Position numbers and translations under genes: made by a program. From sequence record PZ445448.1: a stretch of DNA of 64,000 bases, one strand, 5' to 3'. Below, in pieces: positions 6,890-62,897 of this stretch. The DNA comes from a phage. The notes beneath the pieces were generated by a model. The model saw nothing but the letters and a program-made list of their open reading frames with translations, was not told where the DNA came from and did no database searches. How positions within the stretch are numbered: the first letter of the stretch is position 1; each line of letters starts with the position of its first letter.

Positions 6890-7480
6890 ACTTGAAAATT
6901 CCTGGCATATCAAGTGTAAGGGGGATTTCTAAAATGGATTTCCTCCTTTTGATATTTCACCGGGCTGGATATTTTAAAATTCTTAGAAAATCAGAAAATG
7001 GATCGAAAACTAAAATGGATTTTTCAGAGTAGGCGCGACAAGCTGAATAACTCATCCTATCGTTTGCACCATATTCCAGGCCACCATTATAGATTTCCCA
7101 CACATGCTAACCTCCCTCTACTAGAACTTCCTCCACTTGCCCTTAACCTTCTATGGTAACAATCTAACCACTATCTTGAAGTTGCGGTGCAGCTTTCCAA
7201 GTACTCGATCTACTTTTCATTTCATGGCTTGGATTTTCTGAAAATTTTTCTCGATAAATTTCTCAGTACTCGATCTGTTTTTCGTTTTCTGAATCGGATT
7301 TTCTGGAAATCGTTCCGGATCTCGACCTGAAATTTTTGGGGACGAAATCGATTTTTCGTTTTCAGAAATGGATTTTTAAAATTTCTATATGGGAATATTT
7401 TATGGGATACTGTTTTATAGGAAATTGTTACGGAGGGTAATTAGCATGCTAATTAAATTTATTAAATGCGAGGAGTTCTC
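6890..7480. repeat. gene-free AT-rich region with GGATTTT(C) repeats and duplicated AGTACTCGATCT
   Basis: at least 6 copies of (A)TGGATTTT and two copies of CAGTACTCGATCT; no ORF with SD. Confidence 0.5.
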
Positions 7481-7524
7481 ATTTAGAATTTTGAATGATA
7501 ATCATTCTCGTTTGCAGAATAACG

Positions 7525-7549
7525 GGCAGGCCCGGTGATTGTCTCCCCC
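7525..7549 (+). repeat. 25-bp core GGCAGGCCCGGTGATTGTCTCCCCC inside a longer hairpin; inverted partner at 17149-17173
   Basis: 24/25 identity to the reverse complement of 17149-17173. Confidence 0.6.
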
Positions 7550-7949
7550 GTCACCGGTGCCTGCCGTCCTTTCGATAGGTATATTGTGCCACCTGGCGGG
7601 GCCGCTGTCAACACTTTTCAAAAAATTTTTCTAACCTGATGCGCTAACCGCTGCAACCTGGCGGGGCCAGCCTGGCAGGACCTAACTGACCAGGTAGGAG
7701 AGAATGAAGGCTTGTAAACCTGGTGGGCCTATGCTATAGGACAGGTAACAATTGAAGAGGAGGTACAAAAATGAAAGGTAATGTGATCCCCTGGAAAATG
7801 TAGCTATTAATGACGCTGAGGCTATCGCCCTGGTTGAAAAGGCCATGGCGGGAGCGTTGGAACATAAAGAAGAGTACGAAAAAATGATGGTTAACCTGGT
7901 AGGGCGGCGGCAGGTGGATTCTATCATAAAAAATAATTTAAAATAATTG

Positions 7950-17173: not shown

Positions 17174-17281
17174 TGTCATATAAGAACTATAAAAACCGTT
17201 GACATCTGCCAGGGGGTGGGGTAACATTTATCTTGAAGGGGCAAAGGTGCCCACACAACAACCAGAAGAGAGGAAAACACT

Positions 17282-18442: not shown

Positions 18443-18461
18443 TTTTTTAACTGAATTATCA

Positions 18462-18486
18462 AGGGGCTTAGGCCCCTTTCTTTTTG
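18462..18486 (+). terminator. intrinsic terminator closing the plus-strand array
   Basis: AGGGGCTTAGGCCCCT followed by TTCTTTTTG. Confidence 0.65.
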
Positions 18487-18489
18487 TCT

Positions 18490-20950
18490 GCTCTTCCTCC
18501 TACCACAAACGGCCCAGCCTGGCAAGTGGAATAATTGACTAGCCATCAATCCCACACACTGTACAAATATACATGGAAAATAACTATTGCATAATTTTTC
18601 ATTGTGTGGTAGCAGGTCCATTTTTACCCGTTTTCTCTCTCAAAATTGCACGTAATGCCGCTATTGCACAAAATTTAACCTGATGCACATCTTCAATATC
18701 TTGTCAACAACTAAAAATCTTTATAAGTCATACACTTACACACTCACAAAAGCGTGTTCTACGTGAAAAATCGAGTATAACTATAGCCGCCAGATCTCAG
18801 AATTTACGTACGCTCACCATTCTATAGTCTGCTAAGTATTTATTCCAACCATGGAATAACGGAATAGTCAATACCTGCATAAAATAATTATTCGTGTAAA
18901 CTGCATAACATAAATCAGCTCAGGTGTCAACATTTTTCGTAAACAGTCCGAAATTGTCACGGTGAGTTATCATAAACAGAGAAATATTTAGTCGTCTAAT
19001 GTTTACTGTACATTACTATACTGACTGGAATCATTAGATGACTAAGAGAAAGATAAGAAATAATTAACAATACAATTATTTTATCTGTAACAATAAGGCA
19101 ACTATGCAAACGAATGGCATGGCGCGACGGAGTCGCGACATAATATAAAAGCAGTAACCATCACCCCCGTGATAGTTTGTCTGCAAACTATTAATCAGAT
19201 CATAGTTGCCTTGTATTTAGTTAATCATGACATAACAAGCAAGGCAACTATAGATCTTCTAATAGTTGCCCTGCTTTTATATTATGTCATAGAAACACCC
19301 GAAGGGGTGACCAAAGGTCACCTGGCATGGCCAGTGAAAGATTATTAACTTGTTAATTGTTAACTTGCTAATTGTTTTCATGCAAACGAATGTCATGGCT
19401 TATCCTATCTGTGTAAACAGTCAAGGTGTAAACTATCCAGGCGTAAACAATCTATACGTGAACAGTGAAACATGAAATAATAACAGTCGTTATTGTGTCG
19501 AAAGTGTATAAGGTGTCATAGTATGTCAGACAAGTTTTTCTCCTCTTTGTCAAGTGCTGCATGAAAAATTTACAAGCTTGTATGGTAGCATTTTTGCTGC
19601 CCTGTTTACATTCAGTTGTGTATGTATAACCCTTGTTGTGTGGGCGTTTAGACGTCTAGACGGTTGGAAGTCCGCAGGTTAATATCTAATCTATTGGCTG
19701 CTAACTATATCCCACACAAATAGTAAGAAATATAATTGTTATGTGCGTAAACAGTAACTCATGTTATCAATCCCTGTATGTATCGCCAGTGGTGCGCATA
19801 ATGGGTATTATGTTAAATTGCCCGTAATGATAACTATTCTCACAATGATAGGTATTCTCATTCACTCCCACAAGATAGGTTGCAAATGTTGTGCCACTGT
19901 GTGAACGGCCTCACCTATTAATTTGCCTCACTGCCTCGATATTTGAGAATTGTTATAAGAATGAGAAGTATTCCCATTTCGTCCGCCTGGCAGCACTCCA
20001 GTCGCTACCGCTCATGACAGGGCAGAACTAGACCCTCTTCAGATATTTCTGGCTGACTCTTCAGGCCTGTGTGGGAAAAGCCAACCTCTCCGGCGGCGGG
20101 GAGGGGTTTGTCAGGAAAATTGCAGGTCAATTAAAAAATTTACGTGGTATATGAAGCGCTCTTCAGGTAAGGCATGTATTATGGGATGAAACCCTCTTCA
20201 GGCAATGATATTTGTGGGTGTGATATTTGCTGGAAAGCCAGATATGACGGGACTCCCGGCGGGGCAGGGGTAGTACAGACAGGGGAAATATGGAGGATGT
20301 AGTTGGGGGAGTTGATCAAACAGGTAGAGTATGGAATATGTTACAAGTATGTTAAATATGGAGGGTGGATATCTGTAGGATTTATGTGTAAAATCAAAGA
20401 CTTAAGTGGTGTTGTGGTATTTTCTATAAATAATTCAAGTTTAATAGGTAATATTTGTCTCTATCCGCTTTGTGTGGTAAACAAATTCAGATGGTGTTGG
20501 TTTACAAGTGTATACATAATATACAAATTAAAGATACAAGAAACCCCCCTCCCCCTTCGGCTACCATTCACCTTTTCCTCTGACTGGTACTTAAACACTT
20601 ATTCAGACTCTTCAGGTTATCACCCATATATCATATGGCAGTGACTGGTGTCCTCCGGCCCCTCTTTCGTCACCCGTCCGCTTCGCCATGCTAATGCCAT
20701 AGCCAATGGTTCGGTTGTTCACCCTGTTCACTCAGGTGTATCTCCATACCCCTTCAAACCGAAGAGAACAGAAAACCCGAATTACTCGGTAAAAGAAAAG
20801 AGAAGAACTTAATTTTATCAGGATAGGCAAGAATGTCAAGGCATGACTGCTCACTAAACAAGCAAACAGTCATGTGTGGGAGGTAAGTGATTGTGGTGGT
20901 AGGAAATTTAGTTGAAAGATGTGTTATAGGTGCTCCCAGCACTTTAGCCG
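18490..20950. repeat. 2.4-kb gene-free repeat-dense region (GTAAACAG iterons, AAGGCAACTAT sites, CTCTTCAGG repeats)
   Basis: no ORF with SD on either strand; multiple short repeat families. Confidence 0.6.
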
Positions 20951-20966
20951 GGTAGCTAATTGTGTG

Positions 20967-58593: not shown

Positions 58594-59148
58594 ATGAAAT
58601 ACTTTGTAACAAGCGACACACACTTTCTCCACCAGCGGGTCATGGAGTTTGATTCATGTCAAAAACACAGATCTCAGTATGATCACAATCTTGACAGTAT
58701 GAATGCGGGAATCATCGCCGAATGGAACTCTGTTGTGTCACCTGCAGACACTGTGTTCCACTTGGGAGATATTGCGTGCACTAATGATAAGAATATCAAC
58801 AACTTACTTCCAGATATTCTAAATATGTTGAACGGACATATTATTCTTGTTCGTGGCAACCATGACACACGGACGACTGTCAGAATTATGAAAGAGTTCG
58901 GTCATGAGGTTGTAGATTATTACGAGCTTCGCCACAACAAGAATTTGATCTGTATGAGCCATTACCAGTTTGCAAAGTGGAACAGAAAGCCTCACGGATC
59001 AGTCCAACTGTTCGGTCATGCTCACGGAACCACACAGCAGTTGTTTGGCAGGCAGTTTGATGTCGGTTGGGATGTGTGGGGGAGACTCTTACCATTAGAA
59101 GAGGCATACCGTATTGCAATGAGTCTTGCTATTGACAGCTGGGAGTAA
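58594..59148 (+). CDS. metallophosphoesterase (calcineurin-like phosphatase)
   Basis: motifs TSDTHF, GDIA and RGNHD. Confidence 0.6.
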   Translation: MKYFVTSDTHFLHQRVMEFDSCQKHRSQYDHNLDSMNAGIIAEWNSVVSPADTVFHLGDIACTNDKNINNLLPDILNMLNGHIILVRGNHDTRTTVRIMKEFGHEVVDYYELRHNKNLICMSHYQFAKWNRKPHGSVQLFGHAHGTTQQLFGRQFDVGWDVWGRLLPLEEAYRIAMSLAIDSWE

Positions 59149-59195
59149 TCCCTGCTATTTTAAAGAAAATTGCCACACAAGGAGAATCAGGAGAT

Positions 59196-59546
59196 ATGAA
59201 AGATGGGGATAAGCTGCTATATCTTAAAGTCCCCCTTGAAATACTGTCTATGTCAAAAGTTTTGAATGACACAACTGGGGAGGTTGTTGTTCTTGACTTG
59301 TATGACAAGATCGTATACTGCTACCTGCACAACTGGTATAAGCTTGGAGGAAGTTCACGCTTCACACCCAGCACAAGGAAAATTGCAGCAGATGTTGGGA
59401 TAAAGAAAACAAAAGCAGCAGCGTGCGTTAAAACTTTAGAATGTGCAGGAGTGGTTGAAATATCCACACAAGGGAGAGGTAAAAGATGCACATTTTCCAA
59501 AGTTTTGCCACCAGAAGAGGTTATTCGAATGTCAACAACTGGTTAG
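59196..59546 (+). CDS. putative DNA-binding protein (winged-helix-like)
   Basis: ORF with SD; C-terminal segment TRKIAADVGIKKTKAAACVKTLECAGVV; immediately upstream of hairpin repeat array. Confidence 0.4.
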   Translation: MKDGDKLLYLKVPLEILSMSKVLNDTTGEVVVLDLYDKIVYCYLHNWYKLGGSSRFTPSTRKIAADVGIKKTKAAACVKTLECAGVVEISTQGRGKRCTFSKVLPPEEVIRMSTTG

Positions 59547-59620
59547 ACCAGTAAAAACTTAAATATCTGTACTATAAGGATTCGTATGTTTTATGTTCGC
59601 TCTGGAACAGAGGTTAGTAA

Positions 59621-59703
59621 CTGTCCGTGATACGGACACTACTGTCCGTCACGCGGACACATCTGCCCGTAATACGGACACTAACTGTCCGTGATACGGA
59701 CAC
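59621..59703. repeat. four tandem 21-22-bp units each holding a 7-bp-arm hairpin (CTGTCCGTGATACGGACAC)
   Basis: units start at 59621, 59642, 59663, 59685; TGTCCGT / ACGGACA arms. Confidence 0.7.
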
Positions 59704-59850
59704 ATAAAGAATATAACTAAAATAACTAAATAATAAAAAATAAAAGATCTAGTACTTATGGTACTAAGTACATATACTTAACTTATGTAGAATATACTAG
59801 ATCCTAAGTACCATGTTTTAAATTTATTACTTACTATGGGTAGTGTCGGC

Positions 59851-60100
59851 CCTTCATTGGCACTCGCCTACGAGGGGCGAGATGCCGGGCCTCCCTGGTG
59901 CACACAATAACAGAAGTGCATACATGCAGGTCTGGTAACATGTGTGGGAGCGAAGCGATAGCGCAGGCCAAAGGCCGAGCACTGATGTGGACCACCGACG
60001 AAAGCTTGCCAGCGCCGTAAGGAGTCGGTTGAGAGTCTCCCGCGCGAGCTTGGATGAAGTTTATGTGTGGAAACGGACAAGAAGGCCCCTAAATCGCTCC
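59851..60100. ncRNA. candidate structured RNA or regulatory element (GC-rich island)
   Basis: abrupt GC rise; nested hairpins such as GGCACTCGCC-TACGAG-GGGCGAGATGCC; no credible ORF. Confidence 0.25.
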
Positions 60101-60206
60101 ACAGCTATATAAACTATACCAGGTAAGGCAATCGCACCAGTTTGATAGAAAAGCTCGTTACAAAGCGATACAGTGAGTTTTTCTATAACTTGAAGAGGAG
60201 GTAGTT

Positions 60207-60785
60207 ATGAGTCCACGCAAAGATGACCGTGAAAAGATTGCAAAACGTTATCAGAATGAAGAACAGATGGAGAAAACTTTCAAGTGGAAGCCAGGTTTCC
60301 AGCGTAATCATTCTAACGCTCGTGATCGTAAGCATCCGGATAAGTGGTTAACACCGCCAAATGATGGCATTCAGGTTGGTGATGAGAAGGAGCTGTCACC
60401 TGGAAAAGATGGCAACTACATTCGAACTAAGGAAGCAGGTCCAAAGGATGACAGCTATCTTGTAGATAAGGTTCTTGACGGTGTTGATGTAGGTGTTGAC
60501 ACTGTACGAAACCTTTTTCTTGGTTGGTATCGCACAGGGTTTTTCGACATCAAGGCTATTCGTCGTGTTTGTGATATTAAAAAGTCTGCCTACGATGATG
60601 ATTCCCTACATCGCACTCTGAGACAATACTCAGAGAGATACGGTCATCCAGTTATCACTCTTGACGATATTAACGAAGTTATGTATCATGTAGAGGTTGT
60701 TGCAGGTAGGTTCGGTGATGCATATCTCGGTATTCTCTCTGCAAAGGATGAGGTAATGTTAAATAAGATTTACTATGAACGCTGA
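60207..60785 (+). CDS. hypothetical protein
   Basis: GAAGAGGAGGTAGTT-ATG. Confidence 0.5.
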   Translation: MSPRKDDREKIAKRYQNEEQMEKTFKWKPGFQRNHSNARDRKHPDKWLTPPNDGIQVGDEKELSPGKDGNYIRTKEAGPKDDSYLVDKVLDGVDVGVDTVRNLFLGWYRTGFFDIKAIRRVCDIKKSAYDDDSLHRTLRQYSERYGHPVITLDDINEVMYHVEVVAGRFGDAYLGILSAKDEVMLNKIYYER

Positions 60786-61329: not shown

Positions 61330-61620
61330 ATCCAATTTAAAGATGAATTTGATGGCTTTATCTCCGGATGCTTTGAAACAGGGTTCGGAGAAGACTGAGT
61401 TCCCCTTAGAGGGCTTGATAGTGCACCACACTTAAAATGGTAGGGGCAGCCAGCACATGACGATGTGACTCCAGCCAACCTGTAACAAGGTCGAGCCGAA
61501 GCGCGGGTAATAGGCCTCTGGTAACCCACTTGTTGGGTCTTGCTGGTCCAGGACGCTGGACAAGTCGCAGGGAACACCACCCTGCGGCGAACTTGACAAT
61601 CAGTATTTGCTATGATAAAA
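61330..61620. ncRNA. candidate structured RNA or leader (second GC-rich island)
   Basis: GC-rich with perfect hairpin CGCAGGG-AACACCAC-CCTGCG and others; no credible ORF. Confidence 0.2.
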
Positions 61621-61649
61621 TCCACCTATCACGTGATAATGGAGGAAAC

Positions 61650-62084: not shown

Positions 62085-62159
62085 GCCCTGTTAGCTTAGT
62101 GGATAAAGCAGCGGCCTTCTAAGCCGTTGACACTGGTTCGAGTCCAGTACGGGGTGCCA
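62085..62159 (+). tRNA. tRNA-Arg (anticodon TCT)
   Basis: cloverleaf folded by hand: acceptor GCCCTGT/ACGGGGT, anticodon loop CTTCTAA, T-loop TTCGAGT, encoded CCA. Confidence 0.75.
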
Positions 62160-62163
62160 AATT

Positions 62164-62250
62164 GGGGAGTTATCCCGTAGAGGTAGCGGTGTAGACTGTA
62201 AATCTATTGTCATTGCGACTCGGGTGGTTCGACTCCACCACTCCCCACCA
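62164..62250 (+). tRNA. tRNA-Tyr (anticodon GTA), long variable arm
   Basis: acceptor GGGGAGT/ACTCCCC, anticodon loop CTGTAAA, T-loop TTCGACT, CCA. Confidence 0.7.
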
Positions 62251-62364
62251 AATTTATATTTTTAGATGCATAAATAATACAGATAATGGCATTGATATTT
62301 ATCGTCGTTTATACTAGTCACTAACTGCTCGAAAATCAGTGTCATTATCAGTATAATTTATAAA

Positions 62365-62455
62365 GGAGGGTAGGGAGCAATGGTGCTCAAGCGGTCTTGA
62401 AAACCGTCCCGTTGAGGATGACTCGATGATGGTTCGATTCCATTACTCTCCGCCA
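62365..62455 (+). tRNA. tRNA-Ser (anticodon TGA), long variable arm
   Basis: acceptor GGAGGGT/ACTCTCC, anticodon loop CTTGAAA, T-loop TTCGATT, CCA. Confidence 0.65.
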
Positions 62456-62553
62456 CATTGTTGACCTTGTAATTAAGCGAAAGCCGGAAGCAGAACCGGA
62501 TTATCAAATGTTACAGTCGTCATCGCCGACTAGCAACATGGTCAACATACTGA

Positions 62554-62650
62554 GCTAGGTAAGCCCTTTGGCAAGGGCGAGGATTTTTAATCCTGAAAAT
62601 AGACGAGGTAGTCGTTGAATACATAGGTGGTTCGATTCCATCACCTAGCA
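62554..62650 (+). ncRNA. 97-nt tRNA-like element with irregular anticodon region
   Basis: perfect 7-bp acceptor GCTAGGT/ACCTAGC, D-arm, T-loop TTCGATT, but about 10-24 nt too long and no clean anticodon stem. Confidence 0.35.
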
Positions 62651-62657
62651 CCTTTTT

Positions 62658-62733
62658 GCTGATGTAGCACAATCGGTAGTGCAATTGATTTGTAATCAAT
62701 AGGTTGTAGGTTCAAGTCCTGCCATCAGCACCA
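62658..62733 (+). tRNA. tRNA-Thr (anticodon TGT)
   Basis: acceptor GCTGATG/CATCAGC, anticodon stem ATTGA/TCAAT loop TTTGTAA, CCA. Confidence 0.8.
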
Positions 62734-62734
62734 A

Positions 62735-62809
62735 GGCCCTGTAGCTGGAAGGTTCAAGCAAGCGACTCATAATCGCCAGACGGTGGTTCAATTCCACCCA
62801 GGGCCACCA
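62735..62809 (+). tRNA. tRNA-Met or Ile2 (anticodon CAT), elongator type
   Basis: acceptor GGCCCTG/CAGGGCC with G1-C72, anticodon loop CTCATAA, CCA. Confidence 0.7.
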
Positions 62810-62820
62810 AATAGTAAATA

Positions 62821-62897
62821 CTCCGCGTAGCTCAGCTTGGTAGAGCGCCTGATTTGGGATCAGGAGGTCGAGTGTTCGAATCACTCCGTGGAGACCA
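62821..62897 (+). tRNA. tRNA-Pro (anticodon TGG)
   Basis: D-arm GCTCAGCTTGGTAGAGC, anticodon stem CCTGA/TCAGG loop TTTGGGA, T-loop TTCGAAT, CCA. Confidence 0.8.

Follow-up and report, generated by a model that had tools for sequence, protein, structure and literature searches.

What is the short GC-rich island that lies upstream of gene 60207-60785 in the phage DNA of sequence record PZ445448.1? The stretch analyzed here, called the window, comprises 64,000 nucleotides (nt) and comes from an rV5-like coliphage (genus Vequintavirus). The island was first described, from the sequence alone, in a prediction (below, the original prediction) that saw in it a structured element without coding potential, and it indeed lies where it had been placed, with slightly shifted edges, from 59845 to about 60094. 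The composition profile gives a GC content of 0.576 for the conserved block 59845-60094, and the richest 245-nt stretch of the whole window is the island (0.584, compared to a mean of 0.428 with a standard deviation of 0.035). Only 0.008% of all 245-nt windows reach 0.584, and every one of them overlaps the island. Our proposal, at a probability of roughly 40%, is a plasmid-like replication-origin cassette whose initiator-independent part is the island, a modular element of several hairpins that acts in cis.

The DNA just upstream of the island is the starting point for this proposal. The original prediction mentioned an AT-rich repeat region on this side; this region consists of an iteron array and an AT-rich spacer beside an initiator-like gene, a context that had been missed. 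The gene (59196-59546, plus strand; itself outside the island) encodes a winged-helix protein of 116 amino acids that matches phrog_12838, annotated as "replication initiation protein" (8.5e-80), and phrog_8102 (5e-6) in the PHROG collection, and the protein carries that same name in some RefSeq records. In Pfam it matches HTH_36 and DUF6945, both below the cutoff, and no NCBIfam model matches it. Downstream of the gene lie four 22-nt iterons (59618-59703), each with the palindrome TGTCCGTnnnACGGACA and with a spacing of 21 to 22 nt, followed by a spacer (59704-59844) with a GC content of 0.213 and imperfect palindromes, which is a candidate unwinding element. The published analysis of rV5 found the genome to be circularly permuted and did not locate its replication origin (PMC3606486).

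Comparison with other phages separates the island from these upstream parts. The region 59560-60210 is 99.8% identical to that of phage APECc02 and was found in 118 Vequintavirus records at 90 to 99.8% identity. The most divergent phage relative, L004, is a 137-kb contig (IMG/VR and metagenome) whose downstream protein is 83% identical. The alignment with L004 begins abruptly at GTCGGCCC (59845) and runs on to the start codon of the next gene; across the iterons and the AT-rich region no alignment is possible. At the same position L004 carries five 20-nt repeats that are unrelated to the iterons of the window, and the sequence of the AT-rich spacer is not kept but is replaced by a purine-rich A-tract, after which the same island follows. 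The protein that takes the place of the initiator has 143 amino acids, is 27% identical to the 116-amino-acid protein (E = 5e-7), and also matches a "replication initiation protein" PHROG. The exchanged cassette spans L004:1319-2136 and corresponds to 59196-59844 of the window; the two phages are otherwise collinear. A diverged initiator and unrelated repeats in front of the same island indicate that initiator and repeats were exchanged as a pair while the module stayed constant. Three features expected around an iteron-type origin were found here: an initiator-type gene, at least three phased repeats that change with the initiator, and an AT-rich element.

Identity to L004 also differs between the blocks of the island itself, with 94% in hairpin 1, 67% in a variable segment, 89% in the core, and 76% in the tail. 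Further 3', it drops to 52% in the spacer 60095-60127 and then rises to 90% in a hairpin that precedes the ribosome-binding site and to 84%, at the nucleotide level, in the next gene. A search of IMG/VR returned one related contig, a metagenome search returned six loci, all of types already seen, and the GTDB genomes yielded no homologue of the island. Mydovirus and Seunavirus, the sister genera, lack the whole cassette at the syntenic position, downstream of the phosphoesterase gene, where the genes are tightly packed. This absence fits a replicon-like module that has been acquired.

The same core is present outside phages. In the complete Escherichia coli genomes that we searched, it was found only on small circular plasmids of 13.2 to 13.7 kb, one 39.6-kb record contained three copies of the core match, and two metagenomic contigs of 13.9 and 15.5 kb join the plasmid group (loci L020-L026, L028, and L033-L035; e.g., NZ_CP020521.1, NZ_CP035869.1, NZ_CP043822.1, CP148565.1, CP134895.1, NZ_CP074841.1, and NZ_AP045055.1). 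On these plasmids four or five 23-nt iterons are followed by a short AT-rich stretch (CTAATAGATAAAG...), a hairpin array, strong sigma-70 promoters, and a gene for a Rep-like winged-helix protein. The iterons differ from plasmid to plasmid, and the order and the strand of the core are constant. Taken together, two phage-type and at least six plasmid-type cassettes have the island at a fixed place behind iterons and an AT-rich stretch, and always in one orientation. The plasmid arrays consist of 500 to 700 nt of short hairpins punctuated by TGTGTGGG, with the shared core at the end, and they start with a G-cluster segment, GGGGGAATGGGGAGGG...GGGG. The Rep-like proteins show weak matches to "replication initiation" PHROGs, and no similarity was found between the phage initiator and the plasmid Rep (E = 0.31). 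Within the 64 kb, the nucleotide similarity between plasmids and phage lies mainly in the island core; other short plasmid-like fragments are found elsewhere in the window, and short stretches at 19291-19341 (86% identity) and 19938-19961 are also present on the plasmids. Gene 60207-60785 is missing from the plasmids.

The remaining gene content of these plasmids also points to rV5-like phages. Among their products are proteins that are 50% (tail-tube initiator), 45% (tail-completion or neck protein), and 25% (tape measure) identical to those of Vequintavirus, and a major head protein is also encoded. A terminase, a portal, a sheath, and a tube protein were not found among the plasmid products. 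A partial Vequintavirus-like set of virion genes without a terminase makes the plasmids look like satellites, and judging from this gene content the 13-kb plasmids are probably plasmid-borne satellites of rV5-like phages. Our literature searches returned no description of these plasmids or of a comparable helper-satellite system, and nothing relevant on origins, non-coding RNAs, or satellites of rV5.

The island itself is organized in blocks, of which two contain helices that keep their pairing. Sequence conservation starts with hairpin 1 (59845-59895, plus strand). The stems quoted in the original prediction combine into one irregular hairpin of 15 pairs (59848-59891), in which GGCCC (59848-52) pairs with GGGCC (59887-91), GGCA (59859-62) with TGCC (59883-86), and CTCGCC (59863-68) with GGCGAG (59876-81); its two helices are separated by a 6-nt internal loop, an A at 59882 is bulged, and the loop has 7 nt. 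None of 200 shuffled sequences was as stable (z = -3.46 as RNA and -3.41 as DNA). Hairpin 1 shows 94 to 98% identity across the relatives, and among the phages substitutions are confined to loops. In plasmid CP020521, two G-C pairs have become U-A, and 90 of 90 cells of the pair alignment are still paired; the covariation score was reached by 14 of 500 shuffles. The next segment (59896-59940) is variable, with 28 of 45 columns changing, an 18-nt deletion (59904-59921) in four phages, and additional 1-nt indels.

The core follows. Its 5' half (59941-59993) holds the TGTGTGGG motif, small hairpins (GCGAAGC and GGCC-AAA-GGCC), and the motif (T/A)GATGTGGAC. The motifs are kept in phages and plasmids, and the small hairpins, whose sequence differs between phages and plasmids, are putative pairings. 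Hairpin B (59994-60029) has an outer stem of 6 bp (59994-99 with 60024-29) around the nearly invariant GAAAGCTTGCCAGCGCCG(T/G)AAGGA, so that the enclosed 24-nt segment reads as RNA GAAAGCUUGCCAGCGCCG(U/G)AAGGA. Between phages and plasmids this stem changes from ACCGAC/GUCGGU to GCUGCC/GGCAGC, which alters three of the six pairs on both sides, and all cells remain paired; none of 500 shuffles reached this covariation score. In four plasmids hairpin B is wholly replaced by GTCCGGAT...ATCCGGAC (as RNA, GUCCGGAU...AUCCGGAC), at the same position and between the same flanking motifs. The 3' half of the core and the tail (60030-60094) contain GAGNCTCCCGCGCG at 60033-60046, a second TGTGTGG at 60064-70, and GGCCCCTAAAT at 60084-94, and these motifs too are kept in phages and plasmids.

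Variation among the phages is by itself too low for a test of these helices, which only the plasmid homologues make possible. The covariation analysis that the original prediction had recommended turned out in its favor: hairpin 1 and hairpin B keep their pairing, so the lack of structural conservation that would have spoken against it was not observed. Helices that are kept although pairs change on both sides are what is expected of a conserved structured element. On the 13 phage sequences, RNAalifold predicts hairpin 1, a core closed by UGUGUGG/CCGCGCG, hairpin B, and the hairpin before the ribosome-binding site. The closing helix (59942-48 with 60040-46) never varies, and as it contains three U.G pairs it would be meaningful only as RNA; together with an adjoining GAG/CUC pairing it is only putative; inner substitutions in B9-1 and Aya break pairs, and the registers in L034 and L035 are ambiguous. 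We rejected two further pairings. A long "hairpin C" (60058-60115) around GGCCCCTAAAT, which RNAalifold predicts for the phages, is not formed in L004 or in most plasmids, and a pairing of GGAC (59989-92) with GTCT (60035-38) is broken in three of eight distinct sequence combinations when the aligned sequences are inspected by eye. A DnaA box with 8 of 9 matches on the minus strand (60066-74) is destroyed in Aya and L004 and was likewise discarded.

How could such a module act? In the cassette the order would be an initiator gene, its cognate iterons, an AT-rich unwinding stretch, and the structured GC-rich module. The winged-helix initiator would bind the iterons and open the AT-rich stretch, and the module, folded from the plus strand, would then provide the next step, which may be the formation of a primer or R-loop or the entry of a replisome or primase. 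An RNA form could arise from early transcription that reads through the cassette. A step of this kind would be independent of the initiator, and this could be the reason why the module is constant while initiator and iterons are exchanged. It would also account for the phage core on plasmids that have a Rep and iterons of their own: satellite-like plasmids with the core of their helper might in this way use the helper's replication machinery during infection. The fixed place, the swapped initiators, the likeness of the upstream gene to initiators, the absence from sister genera, and the selection for hairpins in a single strand are, in our view, best explained by an origin module. We infer from these comparisons that the cassette may be an active origin, that the module may act in replication, that it would do so as RNA or folded DNA, and that the plasmids and phages may be satellites and helpers. 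A further-reaching version, which we consider distinctly unlikely as it stands, is that the island represents a new class of structured RNA or folded strand that licenses the origin for the rV5-like replisome and serves as an "adaptor" common to helper phages and 13-kb plasmid satellites. If true, the satellite plasmids could be over-replicated by the helper during infection by means of the module downstream of their own Rep gene and iterons.

Several observations weigh against an origin module. In CP020521, about 500 nt of other repeats lie between the iterons and hairpin 1, so strict adjacency to the iterons is not universal. The 116-amino-acid protein is a DNA-binding domain only and could be a repressor that acts at palindromic operators. 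The real origin, or an additional one, could be another iteron-rich non-coding region, at 18.45 to 20.96 kb, which contains a dif-like site. The GC skew turns at about 58.1 kb, but the direction of transcription switches there too, so that this turn is uninformative on the origin. Neither the island nor the plasmid arrays were found to have a convincing promoter immediately in front of them. The 121-nt core does not fold better than shuffled sequences (z = -0.64), and folding of the whole island is not unusual either (z = -1.1 for the plus strand and -1.9 for the minus strand). Finally, the covariation comes from few independent lineages, essentially the phages and two plasmid types.

The first alternative to be weighed is a protein product. 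The island is non-coding, because its open reading frames (ORFs) are broken in relatives and lack codon periodicity, and in this respect the original prediction is borne out. The 70-amino-acid minus-strand frame that it named as the only ORF is accompanied by ORFs of 31, 40, and 56 amino acids on the plus strand and of 42 and 53 on the minus strand. None of these six ORFs, which all overlap the island, is gene-like, and neither an ORF that is kept nor the third-position substitutions expected of a protein-coding gene were found. The 70-amino-acid ORF contains stops in 11 of 13 relatives. GenBank phage records mostly leave the island unannotated, and a few call tiny hypothetical ORFs there. That small proteins are made, for instance from the 31- and 56-amino-acid plus-strand ORFs, is hardly credible, even though such annotations exist and the 56-amino-acid ORF is intact in 11 of the 13 relatives with two inner indels that are multiples of three. 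The variable alignment columns of this ORF are spread over the codon phases as 15/20/17, compared to 31/16/83 in the neighboring gene 60207-60785; it has a stop at codon 3 in B9-1 and is truncated in L004; the GTG start lacks a ribosome-binding site; the 31-amino-acid ORF is frameshifted in three relatives; and the core copies on the plasmids keep nucleotides and not the reading frame.

The island is also a conserved multi-hairpin element outside the catalogued RNA families. Rfam 15, at gathering thresholds over the window, reports tRNAs at 62085-62894 only, and ARAGORN reports seven genes, all in 62085-62897, and no tRNA or transfer-messenger RNA in the island. A permissive Rfam scan (E <= 10) of 59500-60300 gave weak matches far below threshold, none of them to a group I or group II intron model; the best one, rli43, reaches 23.9 bits compared to a threshold of 100 and lies mostly over the AT-rich repeats. 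A scan of a whole plasmid, its copy of the core included, gave no match. The Rfam search that the original prediction had called for thus assigns no family to the island or to its plasmid counterpart and contains no trace of the intron whose remnant had been suspected; of the interpretation given there, the absence of coding and the conserved structure stand, and the intron is not supported. Within the window, BLAST and a covariance model detected no further copies of the module, and no antisense targets of 14 nt or more were found for the island.

An RNA that acts elsewhere is an unlikely but serious explanation. According to it, the island is a trans-acting stable non-coding RNA that is processed from an early plus-strand transcript, and its proximity to an origin is incidental; the invariant loops would bind a protein of phage or host or a further RNA, and the plasmids would mimic, titrate, or sense this RNA-protein system of their helper. 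The GC level is like that of stable RNAs in a genome with 43% GC, the cluster of seven tRNAs lies 2 kb downstream on the same strand, and the same transcription unit contains another GC island (61390-61600) that is structured and conserved and shows covariation. Covarying stems with invariant loops are typical of protein-binding RNAs, and the G.U pairs of the plus strand and a UUCG tetraloop in the plasmid arrays agree with an RNA. However, no promoter and terminator bracket the island, the plasmid arrays have no evident promoter, there is no Rfam family and no extended antisense target in the 64 kb, and a stable RNA does not account for a module that, in phage and plasmids alike, comes after iterons and an AT-rich stretch while the iterons are swapped. 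Improbable in our view is a signal at the DNA level that is common to helper and satellite, most plausibly a pac site read by the terminase. The circularly permuted rV5 genome fits headful packaging from an unmapped pac (PMC3606486), and the gene for the large terminase lies about 4.4 kb downstream on the same strand, based on synteny with MZ501102. Among the plasmid products are proteins of the capsid, tape measure, tail-tube initiator, and neck, but no terminase or portal was found, and the plasmids would need a packaging site; the island core, which is the main similarity with the phage within the 64 kb compared, could be this site, with TGTGTGG, ATGTGGA, CTCCCGCGCG, and CCCCTAAAT as motifs that look single stranded and are conserved as sequence. 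Compensatory changes within one strand are nevertheless unexpected for a site that a protein binds as duplex, the most conserved 24-nt segment is replaced in four plasmids, and records said to be linearised at the observed ends do not end at the island.

Two further explanations concern the gene downstream and the history of the locus. The original prediction had mentioned a riboregulator, and a cis-regulatory 5' leader of gene 60207-60785, which would act by switching between Shine-Dalgarno- and anti-Shine-Dalgarno-like segments or by masking the ribosome-binding site over a long range, has become a poor candidate, since a 51% identical homologue in another phage (P0006) has an upstream gap of 60 nt and no island. 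Moreover, the plasmids have the core without this gene, the spacer 60095-60127 between island and hairpin is only 52% identical to that of L004, and the proposed long-range pairing is broken in two sequences. This pairing, in which RNAalifold joins 59915-59930 to the ribosome-binding site and AUG, does have columns (134/408) that changed on both sides in three sequences; conservation extends as far as the start codon, the ribosome-binding site is directly preceded by an almost invariant hairpin, and several GGAG-like and CUCC-like segments can be read in the sequence. Very improbable, in turn, is the idea that the island is functionless now and represents what is left, in decay, of an intron, a mobile element, or plasmid DNA taken up through recombination. 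Sister genera lack the cassette altogether, the window contains other short fragments that resemble the plasmids, and the large terminase gene of relatives, annotated as three joined pieces, would be in line with introns or inteins. Yet Rfam contains no matching intron, the island is kept in all 118 Vequintavirus records at 90 to 99.8% identity, and its conservation is blockwise with compensatory changes.

If the island is an origin module, it could act as RNA or as exposed single-stranded DNA, and we weakly favor a plus-strand RNA, with the DNA form only a little behind. At the base of hairpin B, changes from A-U to G.U keep the pair only on the plus strand, the G.U pairs of its inner stem likewise form only there, and hairpin B is part of the minimum-energy fold of the plus strand as RNA and is absent from the DNA folds and from the RNA fold of the minus strand. 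The C(UUCG)G loop in the plasmid arrays is typical of RNA. In favor of DNA, the majority of the supported stems pair perfectly by Watson-Crick rules, many of them with 3-nt loops, and the core contains GCGAAGC, a very stable DNA mini-hairpin. When the island is compared with single-strand initiation (ssi) sites, hairpin 1 is stable as DNA (z = -3.41) and hairpin B is missing from the minimum-energy DNA folds. The cassette has a sigma-70-like promoter directed into it (59132-59161), and between this promoter and the island no terminator was predicted.

Iteron-type origins with an extra cis module are known from the lambda ori, from RK2 oriV with its G+C-rich segment, from IncQ oriV with the ssiA and ssiB hairpins, and from R1, where a G4-type primase site lies downstream of oriR. 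The present cassette resembles them in that an initiator gene stands beside phased repeats, followed by an AT-rich stretch and then by a GC-rich hairpin segment for which an initiator-independent role is proposed. It differs in the much greater length of the module (about 250 nt in the phage and 500 to 700 nt in the plasmids), in its modular build with invariant loops, and in the phage initiator, which consists of a 116-amino-acid DNA-binding domain only; a priming activity of the module would be putative. ColE1 RNA II and the T4 and T7 origin transcripts are structured or R-loop-forming primer RNAs, and here too a structured GC-rich region adjoins the point where the DNA would open. The G-cluster GGGGGAATGGGGAGGG...GGGG at the start of the plasmid arrays is of a kind that favors R-loops. 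In contrast, ColE1 lacks a Rep protein and iterons, and a defined promoter drives its RNA II, whereas here an initiator-iteron pair is present and neither a dedicated promoter nor a promoter-like site directly upstream was found, which does not correspond to a ColE1-type primer RNA.

Two stable RNAs whose function is unknown are encoded in the T4 tRNA cluster, where they go by the names of species 1 and 2 or of RNA C and RNA D. The island is similar as a GC-rich non-coding stretch in an early transcription unit near a tRNA cluster, with a second island nearby, but no relationship in sequence or Rfam was found, and the T4 RNAs are neither linked to iterons nor shared with satellites. Cis elements that connect helpers and satellites are known as well, such as the cos sites of P2 and P4, the pac sites of phage-inducible chromosomal islands, and PLE, which uses the replication machinery of ICP1. 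As in those systems, there is a small element with incomplete virion genes and a non-coding sequence that otherwise occurs only in one phage genus. Unlike those, the putative satellites exist as free circular plasmids that have a Rep and iterons of their own, the putative helper is a virulent myovirus, and the common sequence is under selection for hairpins. Origin-adjacent structured elements and phage stable RNAs are thus known kinds; this element and its sharing between phage and plasmids appear to be new. If the plasmids are persisting satellites of a virulent myovirus, the range of satellite lifestyles would be wider, and the common module would be a first handle on communication between helper and satellite. 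The element also provides a testable candidate for an origin cassette, with the two covarying helices and the invariant loops as targets for mutagenesis. Vequintaviruses are widely used as therapeutic and biocontrol coliphages (PMC3606486).

Some neighboring and similar features deserve mention. The hairpin that adjoins the island (60143-60194, plus strand) lies just 5' of the ribosome-binding site of gene 60207-60785, has 15 predicted pairs, three of them G.U, and a large loop, shows 90 to 97% identity across relatives, and occurs once in the window; it may be a separate mRNA feature, such as an operator or a processing site. The second GC-rich non-coding island (61390-61600) has a GC content of 0.55 and is 90 to 99% conserved in relatives. 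Its compensatory changes convert GTCCAG/CTGGAC into GCTCAG/CTGAGC in L004 and into CTAG/CTAG in FV3. It contains two hairpins with GACG loops, has no Rfam match, and is followed by a consensus sigma-70 promoter (61593-61621); no sequence relationship to the first island was found, and it is absent from the plasmids. The 8-mer TGTGTGGG occurs 14 times in the window, compared to 1.7 expected, a count not reached in any of 100 shuffles (e.g., at 59941, 60064, 20068, and 21287, and on the minus strand at 17257 and 11996). Several of these copies read CCACACA on the coding strand and lie just 5' of ribosome-binding sites.

Two other non-coding regions of the window are rich in repeats. The region 18450-20960, about 2.5 kb without a convincing ORF, probably corresponds to the box that the rV5 paper labels "non-coding." It contains iteron-like repeats (AGTTGCC and GTAAACA), five copies of CTCTTCAGG, and a near-perfect E. 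coli dif site, GGTGCGCATAA-TGGGTA-TTATGTTAAAT, at 19791-19818; by eye, a Xer-like site is also present in the plasmids. The region 7180-7770 starts with AT-rich direct repeats (AGTACTCGATCT; TTTTCGTTTTC-GAA), continues with GC-rich hairpins and two copies of ACCTGGCGGGGCC, and ends in a ribosome-binding site that has 14 nt in common with 60190-60203. Synteny places the large terminase gene just past the 3' end of the window; the annotation of this gene in a close relative (L032, MZ501102.1, 683-2817) joins three pieces, so that this lineage may have introns or inteins. Within the tRNA cluster, 62554-62652 is an unusually long tRNA-like gene of 97 to 99 nt, to which ARAGORN gives an undetermined type with a four-base "anticodon," atcc; the Rfam tRNA score is only 35.5 bits, and GenBank records list the gene as tRNA-Lys or as "OTHER."

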